A stretch of 63,983 nucleotides of DNA, counting the filler, from Hausera hauseri (lineage: Eukaryota): NCBI GenBank assembly GCA_046269625.1. It is 13 parts of 13 records of this genome, joined end to end, with 100 filler letters (N's around TTAATTAATTAA, not from the genome) between each part and the next. Parts side by side here need not be neighbours in the genome. Positions count along the whole stretch, not along the records: positions 1 to 4,122 come from JBJURY010747876.1; 12 more parts are not named here. One strand, 5' to 3'. A model generated the notes under the pieces. That model was not told the origin of the DNA. It did no database searches and saw only the letters and a list, made by a program, of their open reading frames with translations. Shown here in pieces: positions 216 through 51,283 of this stretch; positions within the stretch are counted from its first letter, which is position 1, and each line of letters begins with the position of its first letter. The position numbers and the translations under genes are program-made.

Positions 216-1650
216 ATGTGCTATCGACAATCCGCAGATGATCCCAAGATGTTGTATTCACCAAGAGAACCTAAAAATATCGAAACTAGATCGACAGTTT
301 GGGACAACCCAAGATTAAAAACCTTTCAACATACTGAATTACATACAAACAATCGAGAGCCGCTAATCAGTACTCATGAAATGGAAGAACTGCATGTAGA
401 AAACAATGAATTATATCCAAACGAAGAATTAAGACAATTATCGGAAAACATAGTATCCGCCCCAGAAGTACAGATAAACGGACACAAAATATCAGAGACT
501 AGACGTTCGAAAGTAGAATAAAACTGTTTTGGAACAGTGATTGAAGGAAGACCTTTCGTTAAAATCATTATTGAGGATTTGGAAGTTTATGCGTTAATCG
601 ATACGGGTTCCGAGATGTCTTACATCAAAAATGATTCAATACCTCAGACGCTAAGAGGACAGTTATACCCGCCGTCTACGAAAGATCCAGGTAGTACAGG
701 AGCTTTCGGCCAAATGTCAAAACCAATGTTTAAATTGAACCAAGAAGTTTAATTAGTTGGACAAACATGTCGACATGAATTTAGAATCATGGAACAATTA
801 ACTGACGACGTCGTTCTATGGTGCGATTTATTGAAAAGGCTACCAAATATAGCAATTGACTTACAAACAGAAAAATTAATAGAAATCAGACCCAATAAAG
901 GCGTGAAAAACGCTAAGGATAGAAAATTTGGAGACGTATGGATACCAGTAGAGGAGAATATCCCACCAAAAACGGAGATAATAATTTACGTACAAATTCA
1001 GCAAGATGACGATCAGCCAGTATACTTTGAACCAAAGGAAACGTTAAATCCAAATATAACACTTAGTAACATACTTACGAGAGTGCACTCCGGACGTGTA
1101 CCGATCCGAATAGCGAACAATGCACCAACTCCTATCAAACTTCATGCTTACACTACTCTAGGAGATACGTATAGAGTATCGTCAATAACTATTGAAGAAA
1201 AGCCTTATAAGTATGCCGAATTTCCGCCTCATGTTGAAACTAAATTCTCCCCAGAATTTTATGGTCAATTTTACGAATTATTGTGCCGATATAAATCGAT
1301 TATTGCTAAGGATGAAGAGGATATCGGTAAAGCAAAAGCGTTAAAATTAACTATTCCGCTCAAGAAGAATCCGGGTTCAAATGAAGAAATAGATCTGGAG
1401 GATCCGAAGATGCCAAAATGGTATCCTCCACCACATTCGATAAGACCCGAGATAACAAATGAAGTCGAACGGATGCTTAAAGCTGACATAATCAGGCCTA
1501 GTTATAGATACTGGTACTCGCCTATCCTTATGGTTAAAAAGAAAGGCACTACGAAGCACTGATTTTGTATCGATTACAGAGCTCTAAATAATCTTATGAT
1601 GAAAGATTATTTTCCACTACCATCAGTGAAAGAGGCCACATCACAATTTC
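216..1650 (+). pseudogene. pol: gag tail / aspartic protease / start of RT (in-frame stops, truncated at about 1650)
   Basis: ORFs 216-521, 537-752 and 789-1562 are in one frame; DTG motif; RT motif continues past TGA 1560 to about 1650. Confidence 0.85.
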
Positions 1651-2783
1651 GGAAGATTTCAAATCGGCCTATATGATGTAACGACAAAGGAAGTGAAAAA
1701 TTGTAATTTTGAGCCTGGAGAAAATATGCAGTGCTGCGACATAGAGTTTGGACACACGTATAACCTCACATATCGTCTATACTTACCATATTCATCCGAA
1801 GTTTATATTGAAACAAAGCCACATTCTTAATTAGTCATCCCTGCATGGAACAGACATCAAGGAGTAAAACTGAATGAAATATTACGATCCACTGACCCAG
1901 AGATAAGAATACTAGACGAAAATATTCAGAGAATCTCCGTGAATAAGAATAAACGATGCATTCAAGTAGATGCTAGAACAGGATTATCGTTCAGTCAGGA
2001 AATTAGTATCACGTTTGAAGCAACAGTTGGACCGACTCCAAAGATAGAATATTGTTCTATTTGAGCAGGCGTGCAAAAACCATGCTGTAAAATACCCGTA
2101 AACCGAGAATTAAAAATAAGATTTGACTTATATGAAGTACGGCCGAATAAACCGTGTATACAGTTGAGAACCTACTATCCAGAAAATAGAATTTGGGAAA
2201 TTCCAGTAACGACGACCACCAGAAGACCAGCTATCCAAATTAGTACCATTACGTCAATCACTACATCAGCCAGTGTGCCTAAAAGAGAATTATGAAGTAT
2301 CCTATTAAATATTTGGCATATCAGTCTAAGATCGTGTTCCCCGTGGAAGAAAAACAAAATTACGATATATACATAAATTTCCGGACAACGTATAACGAGC
2401 AAGTGGTGACGCTATTTAAAGGTACTTACCAAACAGAGTGCAATCTGTTAAAACCACAAACAACGTATATAGTACAAGTGTGTGCCGAAAACAAACAAAA
2501 TCAGACTGTTACATTGCAAACTTTAGACGAAATTCGTGAAGAATCCTATGTATACGAAGATGTAGATGAGCAGATCACAACTCCGATCACTACACACGCC
2601 CCAATGGGATTAACTACACTATCAATTATATCCATCTCCATACTGTCAACATTTGTTCTCATTATACTAATTGCGATTTTTCGGTTAGTTACCAAAAACT
2701 GCTATTCTAAGAGTTCTAAAAACTCAGAATAGGAATTAATGGAACTGGAAACCTCTGTTGATCCGTATGATAAAATAACCTGA
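1651..2783 (+). pseudogene. Env-position type-I membrane protein: two C-x9-CC modules, FN3-like domain, Thr-rich stalk, TM helix
   Basis: CNFEPGENMQCC and CSI*AGVQKPCC; LKPQTTYIVQVCAEN (FN3 signature); TM LSIISISILSTFVLIILIAIF. Confidence 0.7.
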
Positions 2784-2885
2784 CAACTACAGAGCGGGTT
2801 ATTCTGTCATCTAACAAAGAATTGGTTTAATTTTAAAACCATCCTTTGTCGTAAGATTAACCCTTACTGTTTATTTTTCAGACTG

Positions 2886-4122
2886 ATGAGTAAAGAAAGA
2901 AACATAAAACCGGATAAAGGACGACCTAGGATCGACGGATCACAATCTACCAAAGGGCGAGAACAATGTAACATTAATGAACCATCAAAACGCCGATTTA
3001 GTATCGACAAATTCTTGCAGAATTATGCTACTATCTTCCGCCCAAATTCTAAATCGATATATAGAGAAATACATAATGTGCTACATGAGAAAACCTCCGT
3101 GAAGTATGATCGAACCTGTCAAATTCCTAACAACTTAAAGGGTATAACGGAAGAAAATAGGATTGTTTACCTTTACTCCATGAGAGAAGACAAAGATGTT
3201 CGAGGATACTCACTTAAACAGATGATCACTTACGGGGATAGACAAACTATTTATATTCACCTGGCAGACGGTGAGATATATTATCGATTTAAAGACCAAG
3301 AATGGAACATAAACGATGGAAGACAATGTAAATTCAGTACACTTAGCTTCCGTAGTCAAGATTTGCAACATTATGAGTTAGAATTCAGAGTAGCCGCGCT
3401 TCCCGTAAAAATAATGTTTGAGGTAACGCACGATGGTTACCCATATATCAAATGACTACCCTTGAAGTTCTACAAACAACCGTCAGAAAAGGATTTGGAC
3501 ACATTCCTACAATCGTATAGACTAGTGAAGGATTACAGAAATACCAGAATCATAGCAATTAACTGTGGAGAAGCAGAAAACGCACAGAAAATCCCGATGG
3601 AAGTGTTAGTTCGAGAAACGAACGGAACAGAAGTATATTATACAGTCATCAGCCCAAGAAAACGAGTTCGTGAGACTTATTATGATACGACAGGAATTCG
3701 TAAGGAAACACTCTCGAAAGGCAAAGACATCAAGCTTGTTCAATCCGAATTAGAACATTGTTTATATGGATATATCATAACAGGATATCGTATCAATGAT
3801 ATTGTTGAATTATTAAAAATACCCATGTCAAGCATCGTAGGAATACGGGAGATAGAATCACACCCAGTAGTTGCTGAACAAAGTAAACGAATATTACGAA
3901 AAAGAAACTATCCCGCACCAAAAGTTATGGACGCCTATTTCAAATTAATGGTCGATGCCATGAACAGCGAACATGCTAAGATTAGCAAACTGTTAACTGC
4001 AAGTCAACGTACTCGCTACTTACGCGACATATATGTAGCTTTAAAATGGGACCATGAGTGGACACCTAATAATCCAGAACAAAACTTAAGAAGTACAACC
4101 AAACCGGAAAATATAAATAAAA
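2886..4122 (+). pseudogene. Accessory protein with C-terminal degenerate DEDDh (REX4/ISG20-like) exonuclease fold; one in-frame stop at 3453
   Basis: IIAINCG..NGTEVYYTVISPRKRV..TGI....L..VQSEL...LYGYIITGY..IREI parallels REX4/ISG20; shares QIPNNLKG, ISPR and LKW with ORF 48677-49990. Confidence 0.7.
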
Positions 4123-4222: not shown

Positions 4223-5065
4223 TAAAAAGCTGGGTTTATTCCTATAAGATTATAAAAAGCTGGGTTTATTCCTATAAGATTATAAATAGCTGGTAAACAT
4301 TTAAATAGAATTGATAACAAAAACAGTTTAACAATGACAGCTATAAATCTAACTAAAAATGTCCATGTTAACAGGAAGACGTTGAAGAGATTTGTATTCA
4401 GCTTAGGTTTGAAACAATTAGAGCTTTAAAATAAAAAGTCTGAAAGGGTTACACAATTGTTCCCTGACAGAACATTTTAAATGTTGTAAAATTACTGAAC
4501 AAATTTGAGTTTAAAAGAATAACAGCAAAGTTAAATATAAACTAAAGCATTCAGTAAATACATATACATCAATAAAACGTGTTAGCTTCATTTCTTTATT
4601 ATAAACTATCCCTTCAGTTTTAGCTTTGTTTGTTTACCAGCAGCAACACTTAGCTTCAGGCTAGTCCGTTAGCATGAGCCATGCTAACAGAAGTGGTGCT
4701 AAAGAGGCTAGCTTAGCTGCAGCTAAATGATTGAGCTTCAGTAATTTGATGTTTTCTTCTTCTGCAGCTCTGAGGCGGCGCTGCTTCACTACTGTTCTGT
4801 ACGCCACCATGACAGAAGAAGAAGAAAAACTTTGATGCTGAAACTCCTGGAGACACAAAATGTTGTTGATGTAAAACTGGATCCACTGAAGCAGGAAGAA
4901 AACATCAGTTATATTATTCACATAGTTTCTGTAATAAACTGTAAACATCCATATTCATCTGTAAACATCTGTAAGGACCTACATTAATCTGTAAACATCT
5001 GTATTAATCTGTAGTAATCTGTAAACTGCAGCAATTGGTTCAAAACATCACAGCTTTCCGATCTT

Positions 5066-8000
5066 TTACAGAACTGGGAGTAGTGATCCATACTGCATAG
5101 TCAGAATCGACAACGAGGCCATTATAAGGTAACAGTAAAGCTGCTTTCCTGTTTGTCCTAACAGCTCATTATGGATTATATTCAGGGTTTTTGACTGGTC
5201 AGCAATGTGAGGTAGTGCTTTTCCATATTTAATGACTTCTTTGTCTACTTCCTTTTCCTTTTTCCATACAAATGATAGAATGCGTCGTATCACTGCAAAG
5301 ATGCTGCTTTTTGTTTATTTTCTATTAAAGTTTTATAGTTTTGGCTGTACCGGTAAATGTTTCTTTACTCCCATCTTATAATACCATAAACCCAAAAGAA
5401 TGTTTGAATGAAATAATAGAGTTAATTGACTATGTATTTTTTCAAGTGCTTCGTAATATAGTTTAAGGCTCTTTTTATATACCCTTTCTTCCGTATCAAG
5501 CAGTGAATCTTGCCAGGATTTATCATTCCGAGATTTAAAAGAAATGTAATGAAAACTACTTAATATGGATAAAAGGTTTTTATAATTTAACGCTTTGTAG
5601 TCCCATGTGTATCCCTGTTGTATTTTATTTAAATATCGTTTATGCAATGTGGTATAATGCTTTTGTAAGTTATCTTGAGCATCTTTGTATAATTCGAACA
5701 TTCCGGTAAGTAACAATAACCACTTCAATTCATCATTATTTAATTATTGGGATGTTTCTTCGCCTGTAAAAGGTACTACTGTCGGTAGTTATTGGTGTAT
5801 TACTGTTTCGTTAACCCATTGTCAAGTTGTACCAATTAGTACACGCAGTTCATTAATCGTATTCCGGATGTTTCGATTTTGATACTTTAACTTCATTATA
5901 TTGTCGATGGGACAATCCAACGGTCGGAAAACAAATCGATTTGCCAGTATTTCTAATTCTTCACTATTCGTAAGGAGGTTACTGTGGTTCAATCTCAAAT
6001 TATTTATTGCTCTGAAACAATAAATTGTTACACTCGCCGTCGTGTAATTACAACTTAATAAGAAATCTACGTAATTTTCACTAGTTGTTAATATTATTTA
6101 ATTGCGGTGTTCGTTCCGGGTATTTCACATTAAAATCTTAAATCAATTCCATTGTATCTATAATATTTTGCTCCGCGGTTGGTATTCGTTTCTAGTGCCT
6201 TCGCCTTTGATTATTTATTAATACTTTCTTATAATAGTTCAGGTAAATATCTCCACTCTTAGGTGTTAGTACAATTTTCGCGCATTACTAATGTTAAATT
6301 ATGCAATTCTTGATGTATTGCAGTAAAGACGTTTTCAATATAGTGATTATATTCTTCAAAATAAGTTGTGTTAAAAATGCTAGTTCCTTCTTACCTAACT
6401 CGTTGTAAAACTCAAATAGATTGTAATGGTCATTGACTATTTTAGTTTCCAATTTGACTTCCTTTATTCGCTTATACGAATTTTCTTTGTTTTGTAGTCG
6501 TCCACTGTAGAATCGTTATCTTAATTGCAAATTAGTCATCATGAATAGTAAAAATATCTACAGTAGCAATGTAATCCACGAGGAATTAGTCTGTTTTCTT
6601 GTCATTTCTTCTGCATCTACTACCGTAATTAAAGATAGTAAACATTTCCATAAGGGATGATAATCCCGATGAAGGTGAAGAATAAGCCTTTATTCATGAT
6701 GATGTTCGCTTTTGCTCCTTTCTTGGAGATTTTGAATACGCTGTGCTCTAGTTTCATTTGCTATTTCATCTAAGTATTTAATACCTTTACCAGCAAATTG
6801 CAGTTGGCAATTTTCATCCATTGTTCCGAAGGAACATTTCTATCTAGAAGTTGTTCAAATCGTCTATTCCAAGCTTCTTTTCTCGTTTTGCGCCATAGAT
6901 AAGTTCTCCCGCCTATCTTTAAGTTATGATGTTTATAAATTTTTATTGCTCTAGTTGCTGCTATATAGTCGTAGTAATGGGATTTTCCGGATTTTCCTAA
7001 ATCGGGGATTGTGTAGTATACTGCTTCACAACTTATTTTGATCAACAATTTATCCAACGGTGTTATGAAATTGAAATCTAATCTCATCTTCACAAATTAT
7101 TTTTGTGACATTCTTGTATTGATCATCTGTTATTCCATATTTTTCATGGTATTGGGTAAGGAAGTTTCTTAAATCAGTAATATTGTTAATAGGTTCTTTA
7201 ATTAATTGTTGTGCGTGATTAATAGTTATTAGAAAGTTTTCTCATCGGTATTTATTTACACTTTCTTCAGTTAAAGTTCAAGGTAGTAAATTTTTCCTTT
7301 GTGTTGTTGTAATTTGGTGTAACTTAGTTCGGCAATCTCGAATTTCGTTATTGGTAAAGATTGTCTGGTTTCTATCGATTGGTTATTCTTGGTTTCCTCC
7401 TCTGGCCTTATGGGGTTGGTATTTCTTAATTTGTCTTTTAGAATCATACTAGTTTCTTCTGTTTCTTGAAACTCTTTACTTATTGCCGTATAACTTTCAG
7501 GAGCTCGAAAATCAGCTATACACTGAGGCTATCAACGAAGGTCTTGATAAATCTTGAGTAAAATCTCGTAATATTTTCTTTGGCGATGGTGTTGTGCTTG
7601 ATACTGAAGAAGTATACGAATCTGTTATTGAAGGCAAATGTAATTGTATTCGCCTACTGTTAGATGAAAAGGGGGTATCTTTCGTTTTCTCCTTCTTTGT
7701 GATTTTTCCTTGAAACATAGTATATCAACAATATTAACATTATTGTACCATCCCAAGAGCTAAATATAGAATTTGGTATCGTTGATTGGACATATGCACA
7801 GCCGAATATCATAAGTAATAACAGGGTTAATAATATTATTATTGTAGAAAAGCTAAATGGCATTTTAAAAATTGCGTTGGTATTATTAGTTTCCATTACT
7901 CGAGTTTTCTTCAGGATAAAATCAGTGTCTTGTTCGGTTATTTGTTTTAATTCACTGAAATTTTTGGTAGGTGGCACAGTATCTTCTGATGCAAACCACC

Positions 8001-10207
8001 ATTGATCGTTTGGTTGTGGTTTCGTCTGTTGGTATCTTTCGCAATTAAATTTTATGGATCTTCCGTTAGCTTCGAGTCTTGCCACGGTTAATTTGTAGAA
8101 TACATCTAAACGAATAATAAGATCAGTATACGATTCATGTGAATTTGGAAAACAAGTAACAGACGCAAATTTAAGTGAGTTAATGGAATTGTTGGGTCTA
8201 ATTCCGCATTAACGTATTTATCGTAGACTTTAACTAGTGTTGGCATTAAAAGAGGATAATCGTTATAATTTTGGCGATGGTCCATTTTGTACAGTTGTTT
8301 TAATCTTTTTATTTCGTCGTCTAATTTCTTTATATTTTTTGATATTTTTCCAAATCTATGGTTCTTTCTAGGGAATTTCTCGTTACATCTATTTCTATAT
8401 CATAATCTATCGATGTATCTCGATCTATTATACAATGAATTGTAACGTTTTCTAATAAATGATGAAGAATTTTTGTACGTTTATCCTTTAATCTTGTTAA
8501 CGCTATAACTACTCCTATTACCTTCAATTGATTTCCTATTATAAACTTATGATTTATTTCGGTACTTTCAATCTATTTTAGTTTTAAGGTTTCAATTGTA
8601 GTTTTATCTAAATAATTTTGTGATGCTCTTGTAACCAATATGGCTTCTATCTGAGTTTTATTAATTGTTATGCTTGTAGTTACTGAATTATTCGATCCGT
8701 CTTCAATGAACGCCATTATCGTATCGTCATCATCTAATCACATTTGACTTCTCAGATGGTACTTGCATGGTGTTAATTGTTCCAATTTTCGTTTTTAGCT
8801 ACTGGTCCACAATGTTGTACACTCATCCAATGTTGTACACTCAGTTTCATGAGGGTTGGCTAAGTTTTGTAATTCAAGAACGGATTGCGTTACTTGAAGT
8901 ACTTTGTATGGTAACTTTAATTTTGGGCTTTCACCTGGTTTACTGGTTTCATCCAGAATATTAACTGTCGCCAAATCTATATACATGAAGTTTAGTCTTT
9001 TTATCGTATTTACTTTTTAGTTTTTTGATGGTAATAATCCCGCTCTTATCTATGCTTCTTGTAATCTTTCCTGTAAGATTGTTGTATAATTAGGTTCCCC
9101 ATCAGTTGCGACTGTGGTTGTTGGTATTCGAGATCAATTGCCATAATATACCGTCTATCATATAATAAGAAGAATGGTGATTCTCCAGTTGTTGTGTGTG
9201 GACTTTGTCGATAGGCATATGCACATGGTTTTATATATGTGTCGAAATCAGCTGGGTAATTGTATGCATAATTAAAAACCATGATTGAAATTTGTTTGTC
9301 AAACGCTTCTGCTACTCCGTTAGCTTGAGGATGATAAGGCGACGTGAATTTATGGTTAATTCGCAAAATTGCCAACACTTTTCCATAAGATCGCTACAAA
9401 AATTACTTTTTCTATCAGATATCATAGTCATTGGTACTTCATATTCGAAAATTACGTCCTCTACTAATATTCTAGCCATGACTTCTGTAGTTTGATTTAT
9501 CATTGGTATCGTTATTGGAAATTTTAAGTGGTAATCTATTGCTATCAATACTCATGTGTTTCCTCTGTCTGTCGTTGGTAATGGTCAAACTACGTCAACG
9601 CCTATACAAACAAATGGTGATGCTAAGACTGGTACTGGTTTTAATGGTGTTCTTCTTGCTTGAAAATTACCTGTTCTTTTTGAACAAACTTGGCTATTTG
9701 TATACCAATCTTTTACATCATCTGCTATCTTTGGCCAGTAATATTTTTATTTAAGTCTGCCTTGTGTAGCTTTATAGCCTCGATGTCCACCGAGTTGTCT
9801 GTCATGGCAGTGTAATAAAAGTTTTGCGCGCACGTGCTTCGATACAACCATGAGTAAATCTTCACTCTCCTTATAGTAGATATTTCTCTTATCCATTTTA
9901 TATTTTTTTGCTCAATTCTTTGTTTAGACTATTACCAATTTTACGAATATCTTCATCCTTTTCTTGTTCTTTGGCTATTGCTTCGTGTGTAATTGGTATG
10001 GTTAAGAATATGTGCATCTCTTTGTTAACTTCTGCATTACCTACTTCGTCTATCATGGTATGAATTAAGTCAATCATTTTGTAATACTCGTATAAGATGT
10101 CTTCCACTAAGGGATCCTTGTAGTCACTTTGTTTTGTATTTCGTTGATTATCTTTGATGAGTATTTCAATAATCATACTTATGAGTTGGTCTGTATCTTT
10201 TGTTCAT
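5066..10207 (-). mobile_element. Degenerate Ty3/Gypsy element: integrase plus about 3.5 kb of unidentified downstream ORFs
   Basis: IAIDY, MISDRKSNF, TSPYHPQANGVAE, TGESPFFLLY; downstream broken ORFs including a two-TM segment (7660-8085). Confidence 0.8.
8795..9900 (-). pseudogene. Gypsy DDE integrase
   Basis: GHRGYKAT zinc-finger region, catalytic core motifs and LPYKV tail, broken by frameshifts. Confidence 0.85.
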
Positions 10208-11079: not shown

Positions 11080-13070
11080 AAAAGTAATCCTATAGTGGTA
11101 GACACAAAGCTTTTAGTAAGCAATGTTGTACAAACATTGGCATAAACTGTAATAAAGGAGAAAAATGATAGGAGGGTATTGTTAATAAAAAATGTTAAAA
11201 AAATATTTGTCAAGCGAATAACACAATAATAGCAGTCTCACCCCGTCGTGTTTCCTTAAAAAGGTTGCCGGTGGATATATTTGATTAATTAAAGTCTTTG
11301 AATTGGGACTTTCAGAGAACTTATTCTTCTCTATAGAATCGGTATCAGTTGTATTATCGAGGGGCAAGAGTAGAAGTTTGTTATTGATCGGAGTTTGGAG
11401 TTCAGATCGTGGGAATCGAACCCACGCCCTCAGTCTGGGACCAGATAATCTATTAGCGACAATTATCTCCCATTTATCAAAATAAAATGTATCCAATAAC
11501 CAATCGGTACTTCCGGGGTTTGTCAAGTCAAAGTTTTCATTTAATAAGATATTGGAAAAACATACTTTCGAATGCCAGTTTCTTGGATCAACATCTTTAA
11601 CGCCCCAAACAATGCTCATTTTAATCCAATTTACATCAGTTGGATTGTTACGTTTAAAAATAAAATTCCTTTTCCATTTTTCATACGTCAATAAAGGATG
11701 AGAAGTGCTTATAATGGTTTGCGTTAAAAATGCTGGATATGACAATGTGGGATAGTAGAAAACACTAATAAAATCCACGGATAACACAAGTAAAAATTTG
11801 GCAAAAAAGAAATATTTAAAGGATAATATAAAGTTTACATAGAAACTTAGTAATCGATCATAAATCTTGTTGATTGAGTGTAAATATAAGAACATTCCTT
11901 TAGTCTCAACAATTTTTTGTTTGAACTAAGTGAACAAATCCAATAAACGAGTGATATTAAAAAACATGCAGTAAGGACATAATGAACAATTATTAAAATG
12001 GTACCAAATATGGCAAAACATTTAATTGCAATTATCGATGAATTAAAGCAAGACAGTAAAGATAAAGCAGTTGAAAAACTGGTCGAGAATATGATTATAA
12101 AAGTCGAATCAATCGTCAGAAAATTTTTTGTTTGTACCGATGAATCATACTCAACATATTTCTGCCATTGTAACATGTACACAAAGGTATCATCAGTTCC
12201 CAAAGCCAACAAAATCAAAACGTTCATAAAATTAACATATGGAAATATGTCTAATTGAAAAACTCGAAAGTAAATGATATATGATAGAAAGAATGAATTG
12301 GATAATAGAAAAATTGCCGAAACGGCAAACAAAATCGATTTACCAAAAACGAGTAGCAAAATAATCAATGGTATCAAAATAAAACTTTCATTAAAAAAGT
12401 CCACCATTAGACTGTTTCTCACAGTTTCATTTTCATTCAAAACCGTTGAACCTAACAATTCCACTTTATTGGTTTGCAGAATTTTCAGTAAACGTTGAAA
12501 AACAACAGCGGATTCCGTGGGAATATCGAGGAAAATCATACTAATTCCAGGATGAGACAATTCCATTTTGAGGGAACCTTTTAGTGGAATGAAATTATAG
12601 AACAGACGCATGATCCAACAATCTGTGGTTGTGAATGAAGTTTTCTCTCGTCTATTCATTAGACGTTTTGAGTATGCTTTAACTTTTTTGTTTACGTAGT
12701 TCATGTCAAATTCATCAATTTCAGAACATTTATTTCTGCGTGCAATTCGTCTGTAGACTTCTGCTTTCGATGTTACTGTAATTTCATGCTTACTTATCAA
12801 TTTGGACATCAATCGAATTGCGTCTTCAATCCGACATAAAGTATTTATTTTGTGATGTGAAGATACTGTTTTCTTTGAATTCGTTAATTCTATGCCTTTA
12901 CTTAGAAGCAAATTGTAATGAAAATCTGAGCATATTTCCAGTTTCTTCTTTCCGAATTTCTTCTCTACTCGACCCACAGACAAATGATCGTGGCGTTTAA
13001 ATCTGCCATTCCTATTGAATTTCTGTTTTGAATCTTCTTTCAACTATTCAGGAATGGTTACTGCTTTACC
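11080..13070 (-). pseudogene. disp: Dispatched-like sterol-sensing-domain membrane protein fragment (frameshifted, interrupted)
   Basis: FPYVNFMNVLILLALGTDDTFVY (GxDD), STSFSTALS..SSIIAIKCFAIFG, HPLLTYE and IVWGVKDVD..FDLTNPGSTDWL match Dispatched. Confidence 0.8.
11396..11445 (-). tRNA. Degenerate 3' half of a tRNA-Leu (variable arm, T arm, CCA end); not a functional gene
   Basis: TCTGGTCCCAGACTGAGGGCGTGGGTTCGATTCCCACGATCTGAACTCCA resembles the tRNA-Leu(CAA) 3' half. Confidence 0.65.
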
Positions 13071-25684: not shown

Positions 25685-26290
25685 NNNNNNNNNNNNNNNN
25701 NNNNNNNNNNNNNNNNNNNNNNNNNNNNTTAATTAATTAANNNNNNNNNNNNNNNNNNNNNNNNNNNNNNNNNNNNNNNNNNNNGGTAAATCGACAGATT
25801 GCTGTTGCACGGTCGTTTCGTTTAACTTTAAATCCACGTTTAATTGTTCTAGAGCATCAGAAAGTTTATCCAAATTTTCACCCAAAAGCAGTTTTACACG
25901 ATAACTGTACTTAAGTGCATATAGAGACACGGGATCATTCAATGAAATCAGTATGGGCATTTGCAAAAAATGCATTTCGTACTTACGAAAAATTCGTTTC
26001 GGTAAAAATGTGTTTGGCGTGCCGACGGTTCTGATTTTCGTTTACGTATTCCAATCATTGCATTTTGCCTCTTTGTGTCGGTTTTGCTGCTGCTGCTGCT
26101 TTCTGAGCAAGATTCTGTTTCGTTTCCAGACAATCAATCTGCAAACAATCACCCGGTTTTTATAACTGTTGGACAGGTGGTTCAAGCAATTTGACATTAA
26201 AATTGTCCTTCTTATAGCCAAACAACCACGGCCAATCTGAACTTTCATCATTGGCATCATTAAGTAGAATCGTTTTATCGTTGTCGTCGT

Positions 26291-26789
26291 CTACCATGGT
26301 AGTAATGTCTGAATGGGCATGGGAATGGTATTTATAGTTTGTTGTTGTTGTGCACAATGTACATTATTTTGATTCACTAAAACATTTACGTGGTTTTTAA
26401 TTTGATTAATAATCGGTTCATAATCCACTGTTCGAATACCGAGTACAATTTTTCCACTGTTAAACACTGACACAGTCTCAGTGCTGGAAGCAGTTCGGGT
26501 TCATACGTATATTCAGTAACGGCCATTGATAATTTGTACAAATTGATTGTTTGATAGTCTTTCGGTCGTTATTGATTGGATTTTGTCAATGACAATTCCG
26601 AATGGTACTTGTTTATAAGCTGTGATTGGTTTGCGACAACCCATAATACGACACTTTCCCGATTGAAATACGATGCATGTAAAATCCGGTGGACACTTGA
26701 AGACAAACTGCCTCGGCTTCCATTGATTAAAAGGTTGTGTGTTAATGTCACACTCGGTAACGTCCGCGATAGTTAATATTAGCTAACAT
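26291..26789 (-). pseudogene. TATA-binding-protein-like gene of the Maverick
   Basis: TCIVFQSGKCRIMGCR, INLYKL..YEPELLPAL, VFNSGKIVLGIR match the two TBP repeats (ALIFSSGKMVCTGAK; YEPELFPGL; IFVSGKVVLTGAK). Confidence 0.75.
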
Positions 26790-26894
26790 TATGGAAACAG
26801 TGTTTATACTATAGCTATTTATATATGCGTGTGTAACACGATTACAAACAAATTATGTGGTGAGAAAAGGTTGTAGTATTACTATTATTATTAG

Positions 26895-27520
26895 ATGAAG
26901 TTGCAGAATGATGCCATTTTCCAGATTGTATGCCCCAGTGGAAGTGTGTAAATTATTGCAGAACTACCGTGACATGTTCCATTCAGCAATATACAATCAC
27001 ATACTGGCATCAGGGTGTTGGTGATGATGGTGAGTGCGGTCTGACAAATCGGGAATTTTGCAAATTGAAATCGATAACGGTAATTGATGTGTTTGATGAG
27101 AACTGGTCTGAAAGATTATGCAAAGGTGACGTTATTGTCATTGACGATTTATTTCAGGAAGCCGCGAAATAATCGGACTTCAACAACCTATTCACGAAGA
27201 TCGCACGTCAACGTGGTGTGACTGTTACTTTCATTACGCAAAACATGTTCCATCAGGGCAGACAGCATCGAACAAGAAATCTAAACGTACACTGTTTGGT
27301 GTTGTTCAAAAATTCCCGTGATCAAACTATCATTATGTTGCAAGACAAGTATTTCCTCACAATCGAGCCTACTTTATAGATGCATATCATGATGCTACGA
27401 CCGAGCCACATGAATACTTGTTCATCGACTTTACACAACAGTGTCCCGATGACGTGTACAAACAGACATTTTCAATCAGAAAGGTGCTGTATGTGTCTAA
27501 ACATTCAAAAATCGACGACA
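26895..27520 (+). pseudogene. A32/FtsK-like packaging ATPase (Walker A deleted in this copy)
   Basis: VIVIDDL, LFTKIARQRGVTVTFITQNMF, RTRNLN..LFKNSRD, EPHEYLFIDF. Confidence 0.85.
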
Positions 27521-27753
27521 TGATTATGATAAAAATGAAGAATTTCCAAAAAACCATTGTTAAACGTAAACCTACTACCAAGCGGGTGTCCAGCGGCAAG
27601 AAACGTGTATCAAAACGAACCACCGCTACAGTCAAAAGGTTAATCAATTCTGTGTTTCACCGAACAACAGCAGCAAGATGCAAATTACCATCACACTGGC
27701 AACGGTTAAACAACTACGTCTCATCAGAAGCATCAATACGTCCACAAAAAACC

Positions 27754-28075
27754 ATGCGATTCAAACGTAGTCAGCCATACTTTATTGCTTTGCTCAAGGC
27801 ACCTACGAGACATAAGCGAAACATGCTGCGGTCATTCCCACAATTTGTAGTAGACGATTTGATAAAAATTTTATACATTATCGTTGTGTCAGGTTGACAT
27901 TGGTAGTGCAAAGCGGAATTTATTAAAGTATCGAAAACGACTAATTGGCCTTGCCAACTCCCGTAGTAAACGACTAAAACGAGAGGTCATGTAGTGGCAA
28001 GACGGCGGACGCCTTGGTGCAATTCTACCGATTGTTACGTCATTATTGGGTAGGCTCATTGGTGGAAAAGTTTAG
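27754..28075 (+). pseudogene. Small basic Maverick virion-type protein ending QDGG-hydrophobic helix
   Basis: ..KREVM*WQDGGRLGAILPIVTSLLG; homolog at 52110-52440. Confidence 0.5.
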
Positions 28076-28184
28076 TATAAACGATGAAGGTAAGTATAAG
28101 GTTATTTGCTATATGGTGCATGGTTCTCATCTTTCTGTCCCAGTTTATCGAATCTTTCATTTACGTTTCGTTCAAATTGTTGTA

Positions 28185-29241
28185 ATGCAAGCAAAACCGA
28201 CACCATCGACGGCAAAGATGGGCGATGTGTGGTTCGACCCGCGTCATCCGGTCGGGTATACTGCTGTCGACAAACTGGCAAAGACTGTCAAACAGACTCA
28301 GCGACAAACCCAACGTCGGCTCGGGAAACAGTTACCATACAGCCTAAACAAGCCGATAAGGCGATTTCCAACTCGTGCATACCGTGTTGCCGGTGTAAAT
28401 AACGTATGGCAAATGGATCTAATGGAAATGATTCCGTATGCCAGCATCAACGATGGGAATCGCTACGTGCTGACATGCATTGATGTGCTTATTTGTTTTG
28501 CACGTGCAATTGCCGTGAAATCTAAATCCGGGAGAGATTGCCGACGCTGTTCAGACACTAATACAACAACAGCCACCGAAGCATTTACAAAGAAATTTGA
28601 ATAAGGAATTCTACAACTCCCACGTTGAAGCGGTCTTGAAACGGTTCGGCGTAAAACACTACTCGGTGTTTTCCCAATACAAGGCTGCACTCGTTGAACG
28701 ATTTAATCTAACATTGCGCGGTCACCTAAACAAATTCTTTACGAAGCAAAGCAACAAGCACTTGGTCGATGTACTGCCGGATATTATTCATGCATACAAT
28801 CATTCAACATATCGTGGCATCAATGAATTACGGCCGGTTGACGTAATCGATGATATGGACATGTGGCTTTATCAAAACCGAACACAACGACAAACAATTA
28901 AACGCCCAAAATATAAAATCGGTGATTATGGACGTATAACAAAAATATGTACGACACCATTCATTAAGAATTTCAATCAGAACTGGAGCGATGAGGTTTT
29001 CCGCATTTCAGCAATCAACACAAAACAAACACCTGTCATGTACGCTTTAGAGGATGAAAACGGTGAGGAAATATGCGGTAAATTCTACGAACAGGAATTG
29101 CAAGTACTGCCCTAAAAACCCGATGTATATCGTATTCAGGAAATTCTACGTTCACGCGGCAAAGGTTTGAATAAACAATATTTCATCAAGTGGAACTGAT
29201 ACACTACACCGAGTTGGATGTTTGCATCGCAGATTGAGTGA
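28185..29241 (+). pseudogene. Maverick retroviral-like integrase with C-terminal chromodomain
   Basis: WQMDLMEM, YVLTCID, KEFYN, KAALVERFN, NWSDEVF, GKFYEQEL, YRIQEILR..YFIKW..SW. Confidence 0.9.
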
Positions 29242-30297
29242 TGAGCATTTATTTGAAACTTAATAGTAAGTGATTATCAGAACATGACAACAATACCGCT
29301 GAACGGTTTACCATGACGTTGGACCCGCCGCTCGACTTACGCCACGGAGTCTGGGAAGTGGCTTTAGCGGAATTCACGTTTACATTTTCATTAATAACTA
29401 CGTGAGAACAGTGGAATATACTATACCCTAGTAAGACAATCTCCTGCATCTAGTCGTTTGCAGTTAGTCCAAGACTCTAATGGAACATTTTACGTTCGCA
29501 ATTACAAGCGGCAATATTTCCCGGTTTATTTTTCATTTAAACAATCGATTGGTGCTAAAACACAAACATACGATTGAATTGCAATTTAAATCACTAGCCG
29601 ACTCTCAGGCATTGGGTTTTCAATCATCTGCCAATATGCGGTCAAAAGGTCTACAACTCGGTGGACATTGTATAATTAGTGAAAAATTGAACGTTTCCCA
29701 AAAACACCATGAAAACCACCGATATTACAGTGAAATGGCAAAAGACTGAATCATTTTTTACTCTCATACAACAGGAATGGGTTTTCTTACGGAAATGAAA
29801 ACATAATTGTGTACAACTATCAAGGCAGTAGCTAAATTGGCTCTCGAGACATTTGAATTAAACTCTGATGGTCGTATTTCGTTTACACTACACGATAATG
29901 TTACATATTTTGCCTATGATGAACTATTGGCAAGGAATCTGGGTTTTAAGAAACGAGAATTCGGTCAAACCGGCGCCGGACTGCCCATAGTTGCTAAAAA
30001 AACCGTCTCTACGAAACATTTCATCGAATCAATATTTTAACGATCTAACCGAACCCGTATGTCGGCAGGCACAAAAAACAACTATCGGCTTCTATTGGAC
30101 TGGATCCGGACACGTACAAAACACCGGGCGAAACTGCTCATGTAAATATCATCCGGCCCATGAATTTATCGTTGTCTCACAATGTTCTGCACAGTATTTC
30201 CATGCATATAGTAGACGAATTTTGGAAACCCATTAAATTTCTGTTTAGATCAACGACACATTTGACGTTACATTTTCGACGTCGTCAACGTCGATAA
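29241..30297 (+). pseudogene. Minor capsid protein (penton-like), copy 1
   Basis: MSIYL..PPLDL..WEVALAEF; C-terminal LTLHFRRR. Confidence 0.7.
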
Positions 30298-30336
30298 TAA
30301 ACAAACTACGTCATCATCACCATCATCATCGAGATC

Positions 30337-31396
30337 ATGAGTATTTACATGGTGTTACCGAGCAACAGTTGTCCGACTACTCGTTCGAACAATTCCGCTA
30401 GTGAATACGTTGCAGATTGGAACAATCCTTTGGATTTATTTACTGGACAATGGGAGGTTGCACTGACGGAATTTAACTTTCCCTACGCAACGGTAACATT
30501 AAAAGATAGTATGAAAATAACGTACAACAAAACTGTTACAGAAACCAAAACACATTCGTGTCCTCTGACACTTACTAACAATAAAATAACAATTGGAGAA
30601 TCGGGCATTTGCACGACAGAAGCAAATTACGGTATATTCGGCAAGATCGGTGTTTTTATTATAAATCCAAACTTACATTTTATGGAAGATTTTGAATTTA
30701 CCGTTACCTTTGAGTCCTCTGAGATGACTCAGAAATTTGGATTCAAAAATATAAGGTACAAAGATAAAGATATTAAAAGTGAATATGCAGTTGCTCCTGT
30801 GTATTACCAGACAACGGTGAAATTTACCTACACAACAGAAAAGGTGTCGACGTCATACGTATCGAATGGAGACCATGTCTATTTTGAATCTGTAGCACAT
30901 CTCTGTTAACACTTCTTTAAGTGAAAAGTACAAGGCGATATTTACAGTTTCCGAGTCAGATGCAAATGGGTACATTAAATTCGAACTGGCTAAGGATATT
31001 GTTGACATTTCATTGGACAAAGCTTTGGCCATGGTATTGGGTTTTGAAAAGCACCGGCTTGAGACATCATATACGAAGACAGGGGCGGAGATGGCAAATG
31101 TTGCAACACTCAAACCCAAACTAAAAACGGGACTAAGTCAAATGTACATTTACGTGAATGTCACCGAACCGATTTTGGTCGGTGGAGTACGTGTACCGCT
31201 ACTCTGTACAATTTATCCGGAAAGCAGCAAATATACTGCCGGCGACAATGTCATTGTCAATCTCGATAATCCAATGTATCTGCCTGTGGCATCCACATCT
31301 ATAATCAATGTTGAAGTAAATATCCAATGTGACGCGGGCTACCTTATTGAATTTCCGTACTGTACCACAACCAGTATCACTCTTCATTTCCGTTAA
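30337..31396 (+). pseudogene. Minor capsid protein (penton-like), copy 2
   Basis: YMVLPSNS..WEVALTEF; MYIYVNVTEPILVGGVRVPLL; NPMYLPV; ITLHFR. Confidence 0.85.
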
Positions 31397-31403
31397 ATAC
31401 AGC

Positions 31404-31769
31404 ATGATTGACTCTGAAATCGTTTCCATTTACAGTAAGCCTCAGCAGGGTGGATAACTGTCGTATTTCGTTGGTAAACAGTATGGCTCCGGATGGTTAC
31501 GTACATTAGCACATTTAGCAATTCCGGTGTTGAAGTGTGTCGGTGCCATGGCAGCAAAAACAGCACAGGACGTACTATATGAAAACAACTCGATTTTACC
31601 ATCACTGAAGAAACATGCATTGTCCGAAATAAAAAGCGGTGCACCGGGAGTCGTTGAATCAGTCAAAAAACAATTCGTTGGCAGTGCCTTGATGATGAGA
31701 AAACGCCGTAGAGCATCATCGAGTTCAACAGCTATAAACAAACGTCGTCGTCGTACGATTTTCGATTGA
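31404..31769 (+). pseudogene. Small pVI-like virion protein
   Basis: QQGG and QYGSG sites, amphipathic GWLRTLAHLAIPVLK, basic tail KRRRRTIFD. Confidence 0.55.
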
Positions 31770-45824: not shown

Positions 45825-47207
45825 GTTCCCGTACCGCGCCGTCGACGCCGGTTGGAGCCGCCGAGACTTGGCCGAACATCCACTGAGTCCAGTTCGGACG
45901 ACGGTTCGACTCGTCCGCGCCGAAGCCCGAGGATCCATCCGGTCCTCTCCTCTACCGAGGACTCGTACGCCTCGGCGGACGAACCGATTGCGGATAAAAA
46001 TAAAATTTTCAAACTTTGTTTGATTTTCGTTTATTGTTTGACGTTGTACCCGTTGGTTTTGCTCGACCGTTTTATAAAATGTAAAACCATGAAAATGGTG
46101 GCAGCGGTTACCGCATTTACGACTTTCAATACAAATTCAGCCATTGAAATCAATCCGGCTCGAACACTGCACACGGCAGTTGATAAAAGTCCGGCTAAAA
46201 GTCGCACAAGTGCCGTCGAAATTAATCCGGTCACACAATCGTATATCAGCAAGTATGATCACGTAACACCCACTGACAGTTTTACTAGTAAAATCAACTG
46301 CAATTAGAAAATCACAATGAGTGATTCTGAACAAGTGCTAAAATATCCTAGCACTAACACACGTGACAACATAATTCACTATGGTGAAACACCATCGACC
46401 GATAGTACGCCAAACGAAGTACAACTCANNNNNNNNNNNNNNNNNNNNNNNNNNNNNNNNNNNNNNNNNNNNTTAATTAATTAANNNNNNNNNNNNNNNN
46501 NNNNNNNNNNNNNNNNNNNNNNNNNNNNTATATGACATTATGAAGATATTAAAGTTACGATCCACACCGGGACATCCGGAGAATAATGGAATGGTTGAGA
46601 GATATATTGGAGACTTGAAAGGGAAATTACAAACGGTAGTAAATACTAGGCAAAATGATTGGGGCGAATATATCAATGCATGTGTTTTCGTAAATCGGAC
46701 ATCGGTTTATGAATCCACTAAAGAGACACCCTTCTACTTTATGTATTTACGGGACGCAAGGTTACCGATTGATCTAGATTTTAATGTGAAACCCATTTCA
46801 CACTTAATGGAAGTAGAAGATTATATGCAGTTAATGCAGGAACGCCTACAGTTAGTATATAAAATGATTGGTGAAAATCAGAAAGATTATAAACTAAGAT
46901 ATGAAAAATATTATGATCAAAAGACCAAACAGCAAAAATTAAAATAGGCAACCAAGTAATGTTATATTCACCGGTAATTAAAAAGGGTAAAACGTCTAAG
47001 TTAGATAGACCATATAAAGGACCGTATGAAGTAGAAAAAATAGATTTACCGAATATTTGTTTGAAGAAAAATAATACTTCTGTAAAAGTCCATGTTAATA
47101 GATGTAAACCCTATGCCAAAGAGAGCAAACTAAGAAAAGGTGAAAAAGAGTCGGTATGTAGCATCAGTAAATAGGTAATCGAAATAAGTTCAACAAGTAA
47201 ACTTCAG

Positions 47208-48565
47208 ATAAAGGAGGTCCTACTACTAATCATTATATTGTTATCTTCCCTAGTGATAGGACAGATAACGAATTCGGAAATCGAACGTGCAAAAATAAGA
47301 CATGCCATAGCTGTACAAGAAGATCTGTTAATGAAAGCTTTACGGTACAAAATAACATATTCAGAGAAAGGTCAGAAAGTAATAATTTGGAGTATGTTAG
47401 ACCAAATGCCGTCCACATATATTATGGGAATACAAATGATACCTTGTCACGATAACAAAAGAGACCCTAATGAGCGACAGTATAATTGCCTATTCCACGC
47501 AGGGACCAATCACACAGAACATCTAGTACAAGACTCAGGTGTTTATTATATATATCTGACACTCATAAGAAAACAAGGAGACTACTATAGAAGCAGGGAA
47601 ACAAAATTGCCAGATAAATAGTAATCCCTACCAGACAACAGATGAACGAAACGTTATTATATGAAATAATATTCAATCAGTTGATAACAAGGCCGATGGG
47701 ATTTAAAAGCGGGATACGATTAGAAAATACTCGAAGAATAACAATAAAGCTAATAGACACAGTGATTTCAGAAGTCAAAGTTTGCAGGATTAAAGGTAAT
47801 CAGCAACGAGTTTGTTGTACGGTTACGAGAGGAAAAATATATCATGTTTATTATCTTCTGTTTCGAAAAAAGAATGGTAAATTCAGGTATCCAGTAGAAC
47901 GAAAAGGACCAACAATGTTCATACGATATAAAAATCAAAAAGAGTACTATGATATACCAGAAAAGATCACGATGCCATCTGTGCAATTCTCGGCTGATAA
48001 AAAAGAGATTACTATCTTAATTAAACCTTACGCTTCATATTATCGTCAAAAACGTTCCATAGGGGATAACGTAACTATCATAGCAGCCCCCACTGCATTA
48101 ATTATATCCGTTAAATTTTATCTTGATTTTGTAAGAATTAACTTTAGTTGTAAGAAACAAGATACCATAGTAGCAAAAGGAGTTATAACCCCCGATGATC
48201 TGATAGTGTCATGTGCGGCCTTGGAGTCTGATACGAAACACACGGTCATTCTACAATTGTTAGATTACAATGACAAAATAACCTCTACAAAAGTAATGTC
48301 CGCTATCACAAAAAGTAACAAAGTAGAATCACCACATGGGATAAATACAGTTAAAAGTAAAACAACTAAACAGCCATCACGATCGGTGTATAAGTATTCT
48401 CGCCTAGAAATAATCATAATAGGTTCAATAGTTCCAATAGCAGTTGCAATAATAGTAGTGATATTGTTTAAGGTGATACGACGACGACACAAGAGGAAAC
48501 GAAGCTGCGTACGAATTAACCTACGTGAGCTAACGAACCCGTTAGCAACTGACAATTCCAGCTGA
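47208..48565 (+). pseudogene. Env-position type-I membrane protein (signal peptide, C-x9-CC, FN3-like, TM, basic tail); one frameshift near 47630
   Basis: (ATA)KEVLLLIIILLSSLVIG|Q, CRIKGNQQRVCC, LESDTKHTVIL, IIIIGSIVPIAVAIIVVILF-KVIRRRHKRKR. Confidence 0.75.
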
Positions 48566-48746: not shown

Positions 48747-49990
48747 TATCAACTTCAACCGCTAACCAGATACAATCAATCACCAGGTCGAAACATTGGT
48801 TCAGTAACGCCAAAACCCACCTCATCAATGCCACCCCAGCCAGTCAATATTACGTAGTCCACAACGACTATACCTATAGTCTAAATTATCCCCAGACGCT
48901 ACAGATCCCAAATAATCTCAAAGGCTACAGTATGGGCAATCGGTCCTTAGCCATAATTCAGTTAACGAAAGCAACATCATTCTATCTCCAGGACCTAATA
49001 ATTCTGCCGGAAAGATTTCACTATATGAACATCTATAACATTGCGGGCAAATTCCATATTAAGTCGACAAGCCGCAAAACCTCAATACAGAGAGAGCTAA
49101 TTAATATGGATCCAAATCGTGCTCTCGCCTTTAAATCCAAATTTATAAAGGACATTACATTAATGATTCGCTTCCTTTCAAATCGAATTATGATCGCATT
49201 TGAGATCATCAAACATGAGACCTTTCAACCAAGCGTCCCAGAGGGTAGATGTTTCCATCTTCCGGAACCCGACTATCTTCGCTACAAGACAGTCCCTTAC
49301 AGACGAATACAAAACGTCACAAACGCAGATATGGTCATAGCCGCCGTCAACTTAGCGTATGACCAATGGAGTCAGATGCAGCCAATCCAATGCTCGGTCA
49401 TAATGCTAGATGGTCAAACCCTCTTCTATAGCGTCATCTCTCCTCGACAAAGGATCAATAATTTTGATACCCATCTGACGGGTTTAGCGGAATCACACAT
49501 AAATAATCAGATGGATACCAACGAGTTTTATCGAAAGATCACGGAGATTCTAACGGCCAAAATTATAATCGGAGCTGATGTTCTTGAAATGGTAATTAAC
49601 CACTGTAAGTGTCCAGTCAGACGGATAGCCGGAGATCGTGATATCTTTTATCACGAAGAGGCTATCCGTAAGTATCAATTGACTACAAATACTTATAAGG
49701 AGTTGGCAAAGAAATTCTACGATACTTGTGGAATGCCATTCCGAAGCACTGCCTTGGTACAATGCCACCAGGTCATATACAAGCAACTTAAATGGACTGA
49801 TGAAGTTATCACTCAGACCACGGCCTCCGATCCGGTGCGAATAAAACCCACCTCTGGTAGTAGAAAAAGAAAGTTCCAAGCAGATGAATCGGTGGTGATT
49901 GACAACGAAGTTTATGAACCAGAGGCAATCAGATACAAAAGCAGGACCTCGGATAAATTTATACACGTTCAACTATCATTAGACCAATAA
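48747..49990 (+). CDS. Spliced accessory exon encoding an N-terminal domain plus an inactive DEDDh exonuclease-like domain
   Basis: Open for about 414 codons; acceptor TTGACATTTCTTTCTACAG ends at 48746; LDGQTLFYSVISPRQRINNFDTHLTGL..KIIIG..RD resembles REX4/ISG20. Confidence 0.7.
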
Positions 49991-50139
49991 CATTCTCGCG
50001 ACTCTCTCACTTTCTCCAGTTATTAAAATTTGTGGCAATTTTCTTTAACCCCGATCCTTTCTGATGACTTTTAACCCCAACTGATCTTAAAAATAGACAT
50101 TCCATTACTATGACAATTTAAAAATAGACTACTTTGTGT

Positions 50140-50473
50140 TGATAATGTTAAAGCTGATTTAGTTTATTGCACTATTCATAATTTGGACATATTTGATATG
50201 GTTATTTTATCACAATTGTATTTTGTCCTAATTTGGACATATTCGATGTAGTTATTTTATCACAATTGTATTAACTTAAACATATTTGGCATTACGTGTC
50301 CTAATTTGGACATTTCGATGATAATGTAAAAGCTGATTTAGTTTATTGCACTCGTCCTAATTTGGACAGATTGGATGTTGTTATTTTATCGCAACTGTAT
50401 TAATTTAAACATATTTGGCATTACGTGTCCTAATATGGACATTTTGGTGAACAGACAGGGACTATATATATAA
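50140..50473 (+). promoter_or_regulatory. U3 enhancer: tandem duplications with four perfect CArG boxes, then a TATA box
   Basis: CCTAATTTGG at 50227, 50300 and 50356; CCTAATATGG at 50429; TATATATATAA at 50463. Confidence 0.75.
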
Positions 50474-50966
50474 CATACGGTAGTCCTTCAGACCATAAGC
50501 AGACGTTGTCTATTTGTAAAACTTTGATACGATCATCTATCTCCATGTCTACCTGTAAGTGTAATGTTTGATTTCATATTTTGCTTGTTAACAATATACA
50601 GTCATATCTTTTTGAAATTATATTATTATTTTATTGAAGTCTTTTTACTAAATCAAGAGAGTAATTAATTAATCGATAATTAATTAATCGATAATTAATT
50701 TGGTATTTGGTCGACCAGGTCTAACACTACCTGACGACCGCCCGTATAATTTTCAGTAAAGTATATGGTAGTAAACCATGTAAATAATTTAATAAATCGA
50801 AGACTGGCCCATACACATTACCTACTAATAGTTAGGTAGGTCAACGCAACGCCTCTATGCATATCCACTCACAGCGGCTAATCAAGTTAAAGTTAATTGT
50901 TCGTCCCATTAATTAACCATTTACGTAGAAGCCTCTCCCAAAGTAATTAGTGAGGATTGAACAAAT

Positions 50967-50984
50967 TGGTGCCGTAACCCGGGA
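50967..50984 (+). promoter_or_regulatory. tRNA-His primer-binding site
   Basis: TGGTGCCGTAACCCGGGA is near-complementary to the tRNA-His 3' end. Confidence 0.85.
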
Positions 50985-51112: not shown

Positions 51113-51283
51113 ATGGCTAACCATAACGTAGAGCAGGTGATTCAGTCGAAGGCTGATTTCACTTTACCGAAGAAAAAATTTTCGGGCAATGAGGATATAG
51201 AGGATTTTATGATGGAATATGAAGTATATTCCAAAAGTTTCGGCTGGGACGACAAGCAAAGAATAGAAAGATTACCCCTTCAT
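51113..51283 (+). CDS. gag: gag N-terminus (cut by contig end)
   Basis: KFSGNEDIEDFMMEYE....GWDD....RLP. Confidence 0.8.

Follow-up and report, generated by a model that had tools for sequence, protein, structure and literature searches.

Homologous cupin-DEDDh genes without catalytic residues in two Gypsy elements of Hausera hauseri

The DNA analysed here (the window) is a stretch of 63,983 nucleotides from Hausera hauseri (GCA_046269625.1), made up of 13 pieces from separate assembly records with N-spacers between them, so that the two gene copies described below are not neighbours. Copy A (2886-4122; 412 codons including one TGA at 3453-3455) lies on piece 1, and copy B lies on piece 10, where the frame is open over 48566-49990. 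The internal TGA, together with a frame that runs off the end of the piece, identifies copy A as a broken, cut copy. Both copies come after pol remnants and a broken gene for a membrane-anchored surface protein. The features of the two loci were as follows.

549..1673, plus strand: remnant of the copy A pol, running from the protease through a spacer domain into the beginning of the reverse transcriptase [RT], with stops; BLASTP to the polyproteins of metagenome loci L018 and L019, E 1e-32 to 3e-32
1651..2732, plus strand: copy A surface-protein gene with stops and a frameshift; E 4e-5 in comparison with its copy B counterpart
2862..2888, plus strand: pyrimidine tract resembling a splice acceptor, with its CAG ending at 2881, and an ATG at 2886 (sequence pattern)
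2886..4122, plus strand: copy A cupin-DEDDh gene with TGA at 3453-3455, truncated on its 3' side where the piece ends (frame, BLASTP)
3102..3434, plus strand: copy A cupin domain with the IPNxLK motif (family profile; fold taken from the copy B model)
3543..4061, plus strand: copy A DEDDh-like domain, ExoI codons at 3555-3569, with no ExoI acids and no ExoIII His/Asp (alignments)
46531..47130, plus strand: C-terminal part of the copy B integrase, frameshifted (rve_3 E 0.008; BLASTP to the L018/L019 integrases, E 1e-19 to 9e-19)
47175..48565, plus strand: copy B surface-protein gene, frameshift near 47618 (homology to the copy A surface gene)
48747..49990, plus strand: copy B cupin-DEDDh gene (the open frame extends upstream to 48566; an acceptor-like CAG ends at 48746)
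48884..49222, plus strand: copy B cupin domain (predicted model, Foldseek E 5.7e-6)
49322..49807, plus strand: copy B DEDDh-like domain, ExoI A-V-N at 49343-49351, no ExoIII His/Asp (structural match to ISG20)
49991..50963, plus strand: non-coding LTR-like stretch that includes three repeats of ~97 nt (50175-50450); the coordinates are those of the non-coding stretch, not LTR bounds
50967..50984, plus strand: PBS-like motif beginning TGG, three bases past a CA end (sequence)
51113..51283, plus strand: start of a gag-like ORF of a downstream element (BLASTP to the L017 gag, E 0.003)

The pol remnant of copy A held 6 stops in 566 codons and its RT broke off near 1633-1673. Beyond 1633, 26 contigs of other copies continued with different letters, and an internal deletion in the copy A RT at 1633-1673 appears probable. 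The copy A family is multi-copy, with 9160 contigs of sequencing run X1 aligning on piece 1. The copy A surface gene comprised a weak FN3-like stretch (fn3 E 0.091), a Thr-rich stalk, and a transmembrane helix at 2625-2681 (hydropathy 2.94), and that of copy B comprised a signal-peptide-like stretch (47202-47258) and a transmembrane helix (48410-48466). An in-frame ATG upstream of the copy B cupin was looked for and none was found. Contig depth over 2761-2898, from the surface gene to the start of the cupin-DEDDh gene, was far above that of its neighbours in both runs, summed depth being a poor measure; this segment may be a cis-element conserved across subfamilies. An Rfam search of the window gave no match.

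Downstream of copy B, the non-coding stretch at 49991-50963 is probably an LTR, judging from its position before the PBS-like motif, which we take to resemble tRNA-His. No second copy of this stretch was found in the copy B piece, and no LTR pair was found in any piece or locus, none of which spans a whole element. The gag-like ORF that follows would belong to the next element in a tandem arrangement; locus L017 shows the same order, with the nuclease gene followed by gag. Because copy B is followed by the LTR-like stretch, its CA end, the PBS-like motif, and gag, the cupin-DEDDh gene would be the last ORF of its element, inside the putative 3' LTR boundary. This is the cargo position of Ty3/Gypsy elements, between pol and the 3' LTR, and L018 and L019 present protease, RT, RNase H, and integrase followed by the gene.

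Several other segments of the window were characterized. Piece 2 (4223-10207) carries a third Gypsy remnant on the minus strand, with an integrase, a membrane-protein-like ORF, and unknown ORFs; its layout is similar to that of the two copies, but searches of this piece for cupin and DEDDh domains gave no match. The remnant passes, with no LTR to be seen, into DNA of different appearance that holds an exon-like stretch at ~5070-5130, whose peptide we take to be vertebrate RASA4-like and which had no match in Pfam or the PDB. Piece 2 may be a chimeric contig or may reflect a host-plus-parasite sample. Segments 25785-36928, 51384-55804, and 58350-59935 contain integrase-like ORFs, an adenovirus-type protease match (E 0.017), a dUTPase (E 1e-8), and a TBP-like match (E 2e-5), with stretches 79-94% alike, and are probably decayed Polinton/Maverick-like elements. 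Divergent host-like genes encoding a sterol-sensing/Patched-family membrane protein (11185-13043, minus strand) and a SANBR BTB fragment (38552-39070, plus strand) are consistent with an animal host.

The first-pass annotation of this DNA proposed that 2886-4122 and copy B are distant homologs, and this was borne out. The two proteins shared 24% identity over 272 columns (BLASTP E 6e-14), and their Smith-Waterman score of 160 exceeded all 1000 shuffles (mean 39, maximum 69). The motifs that had been quoted for the pair were present in their alignment. A third cupin-DEDDh copy was searched for within the window and none was found.

When searched alone, the window DEDDh domains matched PolC exonuclease (E 0.012), ISG20L2 (E 0.008), and ISG20 (E 0.048), and language-model features placed the window domain with RNase_T clusters (0.95); the window proteins alone were below match level against Pfam RNase_T (PF00929). 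A family profile built from a 60-sequence alignment matched ISG20L2 with an E of 4e-34. The predicted model of copy B was confident (pLDDT 89.3, pTM 0.87) and comprised two domains. Residues 154-319 matched ISG20 best (Z 16.3, rmsd 2.6, 154 aligned), and according to this model the DnaQ/ISG20 DEDDh fold is kept in copy B. A single-sequence fold of the copy A DEDDh domain reached a pLDDT of 37, too low to be informative. The profile matches and the copy B model agree with the first-pass annotation in placing a REX4/ISG20-like DEDDh domain in both genes, and the structure search that it had recommended (a predicted model with Foldseek) returned a DnaQ/ISG20 fold match for copy B.

Residues 1-125 of the copy B model matched the CENP-C cupin (Z 10.1, rmsd 3.6, 95 aligned), effectively on a par with several other cupins, many of which scored Z 8.6-9.7; the cupin match by Foldseek had an E of 5.7e-6. 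The N-terminal half of the gene is thus modelled as a cupin (double-stranded beta-helix) domain. The N-terminal homology noted earlier (QIPNNLKG) stands, although the motif belongs to this separate domain and not to the DEDDh domain. Metal-binding cupin enzymes carry several conserved His plus Glu ligands. The family lacks such a set: of residues of these two kinds, one His (44/51; Tyr in copy B) and one Glu (44/55) are conserved, and a classical cupin metal site is thus unlikely. A homodimer prediction, run without an alignment and with the fold of the protein itself uncertain, scored 0.00 and speaks neither for nor against a dimer.

DEDD nucleases use a two-metal site. Neither copy carries the ExoI D-x-E or the ExoIII H-x4-D of an active DEDDh exonuclease. 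ExoI of copy B reads A-V-N (49343-49351) by both MAFFT and hmmalign, and the VNL register previously given for it was rejected. ExoI of copy A reads A-I-N (3555-3563) by MAFFT and N-C-G by hmmalign, so that the NCG reading in the earlier annotation is reproduced by one aligner and not by the other; neither is acidic, and the absence of ExoI acids from both copies stands. The ExoII sites are Ile and Met, with an acid one position earlier in both copies that may represent ExoII. At the ExoIII His/Asp positions copy A has L/R and copy B has F/L, a call that rests on MAFFT since hmmalign with an active-only profile leaves the region unaligned; the reported loss of ExoIII H..D from both copies was corroborated by the catalytic-site alignments. 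With the ExoI and ExoIII residues gone, the usual DEDD two-metal site cannot form. The view that the fold was kept without its active site is therefore upheld by the ISG20L2 profile match, the ISG20 structural match, and the missing residues, and the observation of homologous dead-site DEDDh genes in two Gypsy elements is confirmed as real.

A word-based protein search with copy A alone gave no match, and relatives came from profile searches. A profile of the two copies yielded 89 protein matches, comprising family members and cellular REX4-like proteins. The cupin was detected at 25 bits or more in 40 of 91 proteins, 22 of which had seeded the profile. Among these 40 cupin proteins, 18 had all five catalytic residues, 1 was partial and intact as far as present, and 21 (dead members, including copies A and B) were without them. 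The dead DEDDh gene pictured earlier is instead a two-domain cupin-DEDDh gene that is catalytically intact in about half of the family. Since about half of the family keeps all catalytic residues, the dead state is derived and appears to have arisen repeatedly. Relatives were sought in viral contigs and prokaryote genomes and none were found, and 20 clusters that were looked up in ENA, JGI, MetaClust, and Logan records carried no name beyond 'hypothetical protein'. Four proteins of 730-800 aa (P0009, P0016, P0063, and P0064) contain several tandem REX4-like domains, some without catalytic residues; these proteins carry no cupin, and the trees described below do not include them.

An invariant Pro-Arg, an invariant Asp, and mostly also G-I-R-D and W-x-D are kept alike in 18 dead and 18 intact members. 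It seems quite improbable that the dead domain retains nucleic-acid cleavage by means of a reconstructed site of the Maelstrom type, where DEDD is absent and an ECHC motif is present (PMC7968707, available text). One of the shared residues, the Asp, is invariant in 36/36 members and might serve such a site, as might the acid one position before ExoII, which occurs in both window copies and in P0003 (57% to copy B). That acid is missing, however, from P0004, the nearest full relative of copy A, and no new motif is restricted to dead members, whose five sites vary freely.

Dead members had a mean identity of 23%, compared to 39% for intact members. The mean net charge of dead domains was +0.9 (copy A +7, copy B +1), that of the REX4-like cellular matches was +7.0, and the lack of a basic charge on average gives no extra support for RNA binding. 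P0004, itself dead, ends in a C-terminal RING finger (residues 744-794, E 2.6e-7). These properties also bear on a doubtful alternative, in which the dead domain acts through protein-protein contacts, as a decoy or scaffold imitating or binding a host REX4/ISG20-like nuclease or the partners of one, without any requirement to bind RNA. The absence of a basic net charge and the fast divergence of dead domains would fit such a decoy, and the RING finger of P0004 would suit the targeting of a host protein. Yet the residues kept in dead members are those kept in intact members, which suggests a shared surface or core and not a new interface.

A metagenome scan with patterns from intact members recovered 20 loci, 19 of which carry the two-domain gene; the DNA context of dead members is that of copies A and B (n=2). 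The layout of the contigs that are long enough repeats that of the window copies. A membrane-anchored surface gene lies upstream of the intact gene in six loci (L001, L002, L011, L014, L018, and L019), RT-RNase H-integrase lies upstream of it in L018 and L019, and gag lies downstream of it in L017. In L018 and L019 a gB-type env precedes pol (Monjiviricetes_fusion E 5e-94 and 8e-84); the window pieces start downstream of this region, and gB env is known from these two loci.

Other characteristics of these loci were recorded. L018:1-9657 and L019:2-8935 are single open polyproteins of 3219 and 2978 aa, in which a gB-type env is followed by two or three protease-like domains, RT, RNase H, and integrase and then, in the same frame, by a stretch resembling a signal peptide, a repeated ectodomain, and a membrane-spanning helix. 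They thus have a second, non-fusogen-like surface protein fused behind the integrase, and L018 has an extra copy of the surface module between its proteases. In L002:3-1679, a retroviral-type protease leads straight into a surface module and then an intact cupin-DEDDh gene, RT and integrase being absent from the interval; this locus may be a non-autonomous derivative in which the nuclease gene was retained. The nuclease gene is preceded by one or two small ORFs at L017:226-1344, L019:9105-9770, L014:2669-3058, and L013:588-1166, and those of L014 and L017 are coiled-coil-like. In L017, a TTTTAG acceptor-like motif stands just upstream of the ATG at three ORF starts.

An acceptor-like AG directly precedes an in-frame ATG in 8 of the 19 loci, compared to 71 of 1640 ATGs, and also in copy A; several of the 19 are near-duplicates and therefore not independent cases. 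This pattern suggests that the cupin-DEDDh gene is likely expressed from a spliced mRNA. The hydrophobic N-termini of P0002 and P0003 were considered as signal peptides, and are here taken to be, more probably, translated pyrimidine tracts upstream of a splice acceptor.

Phylogenetic reconstruction was used to evaluate how often catalysis was lost, with three quick trees that all have long branches. In the nuclease-domain tree, which included the catalytic columns and used 67 of the 91 rows after removal of those that were short, gapped, or multi-domain, all 20 dead rows fell on one side of a branch with an SH-aLRT of 94, corresponding to 1 change of catalytic state. The cupin tree (40 rows) and a two-domain tree without catalytic columns (36 rows) each gave 4 changes, and a single dead clade was rejected by the AU test (p 0.0014). 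A long, fully supported branch separates the family from REX4-like cellular proteins, and the intact members lie nearest to it, so that the intact state is ancestral. Collectively, the trees suggest that catalysis was likely lost more than once.

To distinguish selection from decay, variants of the copy A family were tabulated from 279 contigs of run X1 on 3501-3800, with 31 places at 20% of depth or more. The 24 variants segregating among copies comprised 17 silent and 7 replacement changes (33% silent expected from transitions, p 2e-4), subject to the use of a single run, contigs weighted by depth, a filter at 80% likeness, linkage among sites, and a cut of 0.85 chosen after the table was viewed. 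The rough dN/dS of the dead domain in this family was 0.2. At 7 places nearly all copies differ from copy A, and the 3 silent and 4 replacement changes there (p 0.43) are as expected of the window copy's own decay. These data, which cover the copy A family, show that its dead domain is under purifying selection, and the neutral evolution that a dN/dS check across copies might have revealed was not what was observed. The family accordingly displays, with selection observed in the copy A family, the Exuperantia-like combination of a DEDD fold, no catalytic residues, and selection.

The predominance of silent changes among the shared variants of the dead domain means that catalysis was not lost through decay of copies. 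It is very hard to credit that the missing residues merely reflect post-insertion decay of two old copies of active nucleases. Such decay is certainly present, with stops or frameshifts in pol and the surface gene of both elements and one stop in gene A itself. Nevertheless, at ExoI (codons 3555-3569) the variants recorded among the run X1 copies are all silent, one site being represented by 24 contigs, five of five catalytic sites are changed in each copy, and the stop-free proteins P0003 and, closest to copy A, P0004 and P0005 share an ExoI without acids.

For pairs of intact members, six domain values of dN/dS could be computed; five lay at 0.03-0.05 and the other was 0.29, with dS saturated elsewhere. 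The weaker selection on, and faster divergence of, dead domains fit relaxation as well as conflict. They also touch on the rather improbable explanation that the cupin alone is functional and the DEDDh domain is a relic, packed against the cupin, that must stay folded. The weaker selection on the dead domain is in keeping with a relic, and in the cupin the conservation of IPNxLK, of an Arg, and of a Glu is no lower among dead members than among intact ones. However, none of the 40 cupin proteins is a dead member without a DEDDh domain, an outcome that the two-domain search profile favours, and the polar Pro-Arg, Asp, and Arg-Asp stay fixed in dead members.

The reading that we prefer, and hold at slightly better than an even chance, is that of an accessory Gypsy gene that joins a cupin to an ISG20/REX4-like DEDDh fold without catalysis, a probable RNA-binding pseudo-nuclease that would blunt host RNA defence. 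An ancestral element would have captured a cellular REX4-like nuclease, which would then have been fused to a cupin with a non-enzymatic scaffold role and expressed as an accessory protein from a spliced mRNA. Cutting would have been lost repeatedly while the fold and fixed residues (Pro-Arg, Asp, G-I-R-D, and W-x-D) were retained, and the dead protein would hold RNA ends instead of trimming them, most likely against host RNA defence. By analogy to Exuperantia and Egalitarian, which bind RNA through DEDD folds without need of catalysis (PMC5785220, available text), the dead type probably binds RNA. Its purpose is less readily assigned. Arenavirus ExoN serves immune suppression (PMC7968707, in the portion available), and counter-silencing or shielding of element RNA is a possible role here, if a tentative one; RNP assembly, export, or packaging is an unlikely role, and any other purpose is more unlikely still. 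Equally tentative is a broader scenario in which a large virus-like Gypsy lineage captured the REX4-like nuclease, joined it to a cupin, and put it to use against small-RNA or RNA-decay defence of the host, and several of its branches changed, each independently, from destroying a target RNA to binding it. Copies A and B are both damaged, and the function belongs to their parent lineages. Taken together, the interpretation offered by the first-pass annotation is partly supported.

Few counter-defence proteins are known from animal LTR retrotransposons, and the role of nuclease cargo in rotifers is still open (PMC5408684, available text). The family provides a natural experiment, in which the same two-domain gene occupies the same position with and without an active site, and suggests that elements may need substrate binding rather than cutting from a nuclease. 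Were the silencing-suppressor role true, this would be a transposon-encoded pseudo-nuclease suppressor with matched active and dead natural variants for comparison. The cupin-DEDDh fusion is unnamed and was missed by Pfam in the window proteins.

The published systems compared here are cited from the portions of each source that were available. A cupin-DEDDh gene or a dead DEDD gene in a retroelement was not found in the literature covered, which lay outside Repbase and most subscription journals. Nuclease cargo in LTR elements is already known. The present family stands out by its REX4/ISG20 origin, its fusion to a cupin, and an apparently repeated loss of catalysis under selection; neither the fusion nor its repeated disarming was seen in the literature covered. 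The gB-type errantiviruses of GAG-ENV-POL organization are described from flatworms, nematodes, and bryozoans (PMC13524379), and L018 and L019 resemble them in having a gB-type env in frame before pol, here within a polyprotein of ~3000 aa; on visual comparison, the L018 env looks like the Schmidtea row of that source. The terms 'exonuclease', 'DEDD', and 'cupin' are absent from its main text, as is 'exonuclease' from 7 of its supplements, and no exonuclease is mentioned among the domains of the planarian Burro elements in the passages covered (PMC6431247).

The closest known cargo is that of the bdelloid Juno and Vesta LTR retrotransposons, whose ORF3 is a DEDDy gene with intact catalytic residues (DEED) and unknown function (Rodriguez et al., 2017, PMC5408684) that is cited as a known accessory domain (PMC6338049). 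Like ORF3, the gene described here has a DnaQ-like 3'-5' exonuclease fold and occupies an ORF of its own behind pol in elements of Gypsy type; ORFs in that position are typically expressed from spliced messages (PMC5408684). Unlike ORF3, which is RNase D-like, DEDDy, and intact, the present family is REX4/ISG20-like, DEDDh, cupin-fused, and located behind a surface gene, and its intact members carry the ExoIII His of DEDDh nucleases and match ISG20/REX4. The DNA transposon KolobokD likewise carries a DEDDh gene as cargo, but that gene is likened to Exuperantia, TREX, and ERI1 and presumed active, and a cupin is not mentioned in the available description (PMC9587614).

Among cellular proteins, REX4/REXO4, ISG20, ISG20L2, and SDN1 share the fold, and the intact members share with them D-x-E, D/E, H, and D; the family differs in its N-terminal cupin, its retroelement location, and its often having Glu at ExoII. 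The dead members resemble the RNA-binding DEDD derivatives Exuperantia, Egalitarian, Maelstrom, and EXD1 in having a DEDD fold without need of catalysis (PMC5785220, PMC5408684, PMC7968707), whereas those four are host genes with other partner domains and the gene here is a cupin-fused retroelement gene. The copy B model matched Exuperantia with a Z of 9.4 and is far closer to ISG20 (Z 16.3), so that the retroelement pseudo-nuclease has a separate origin.
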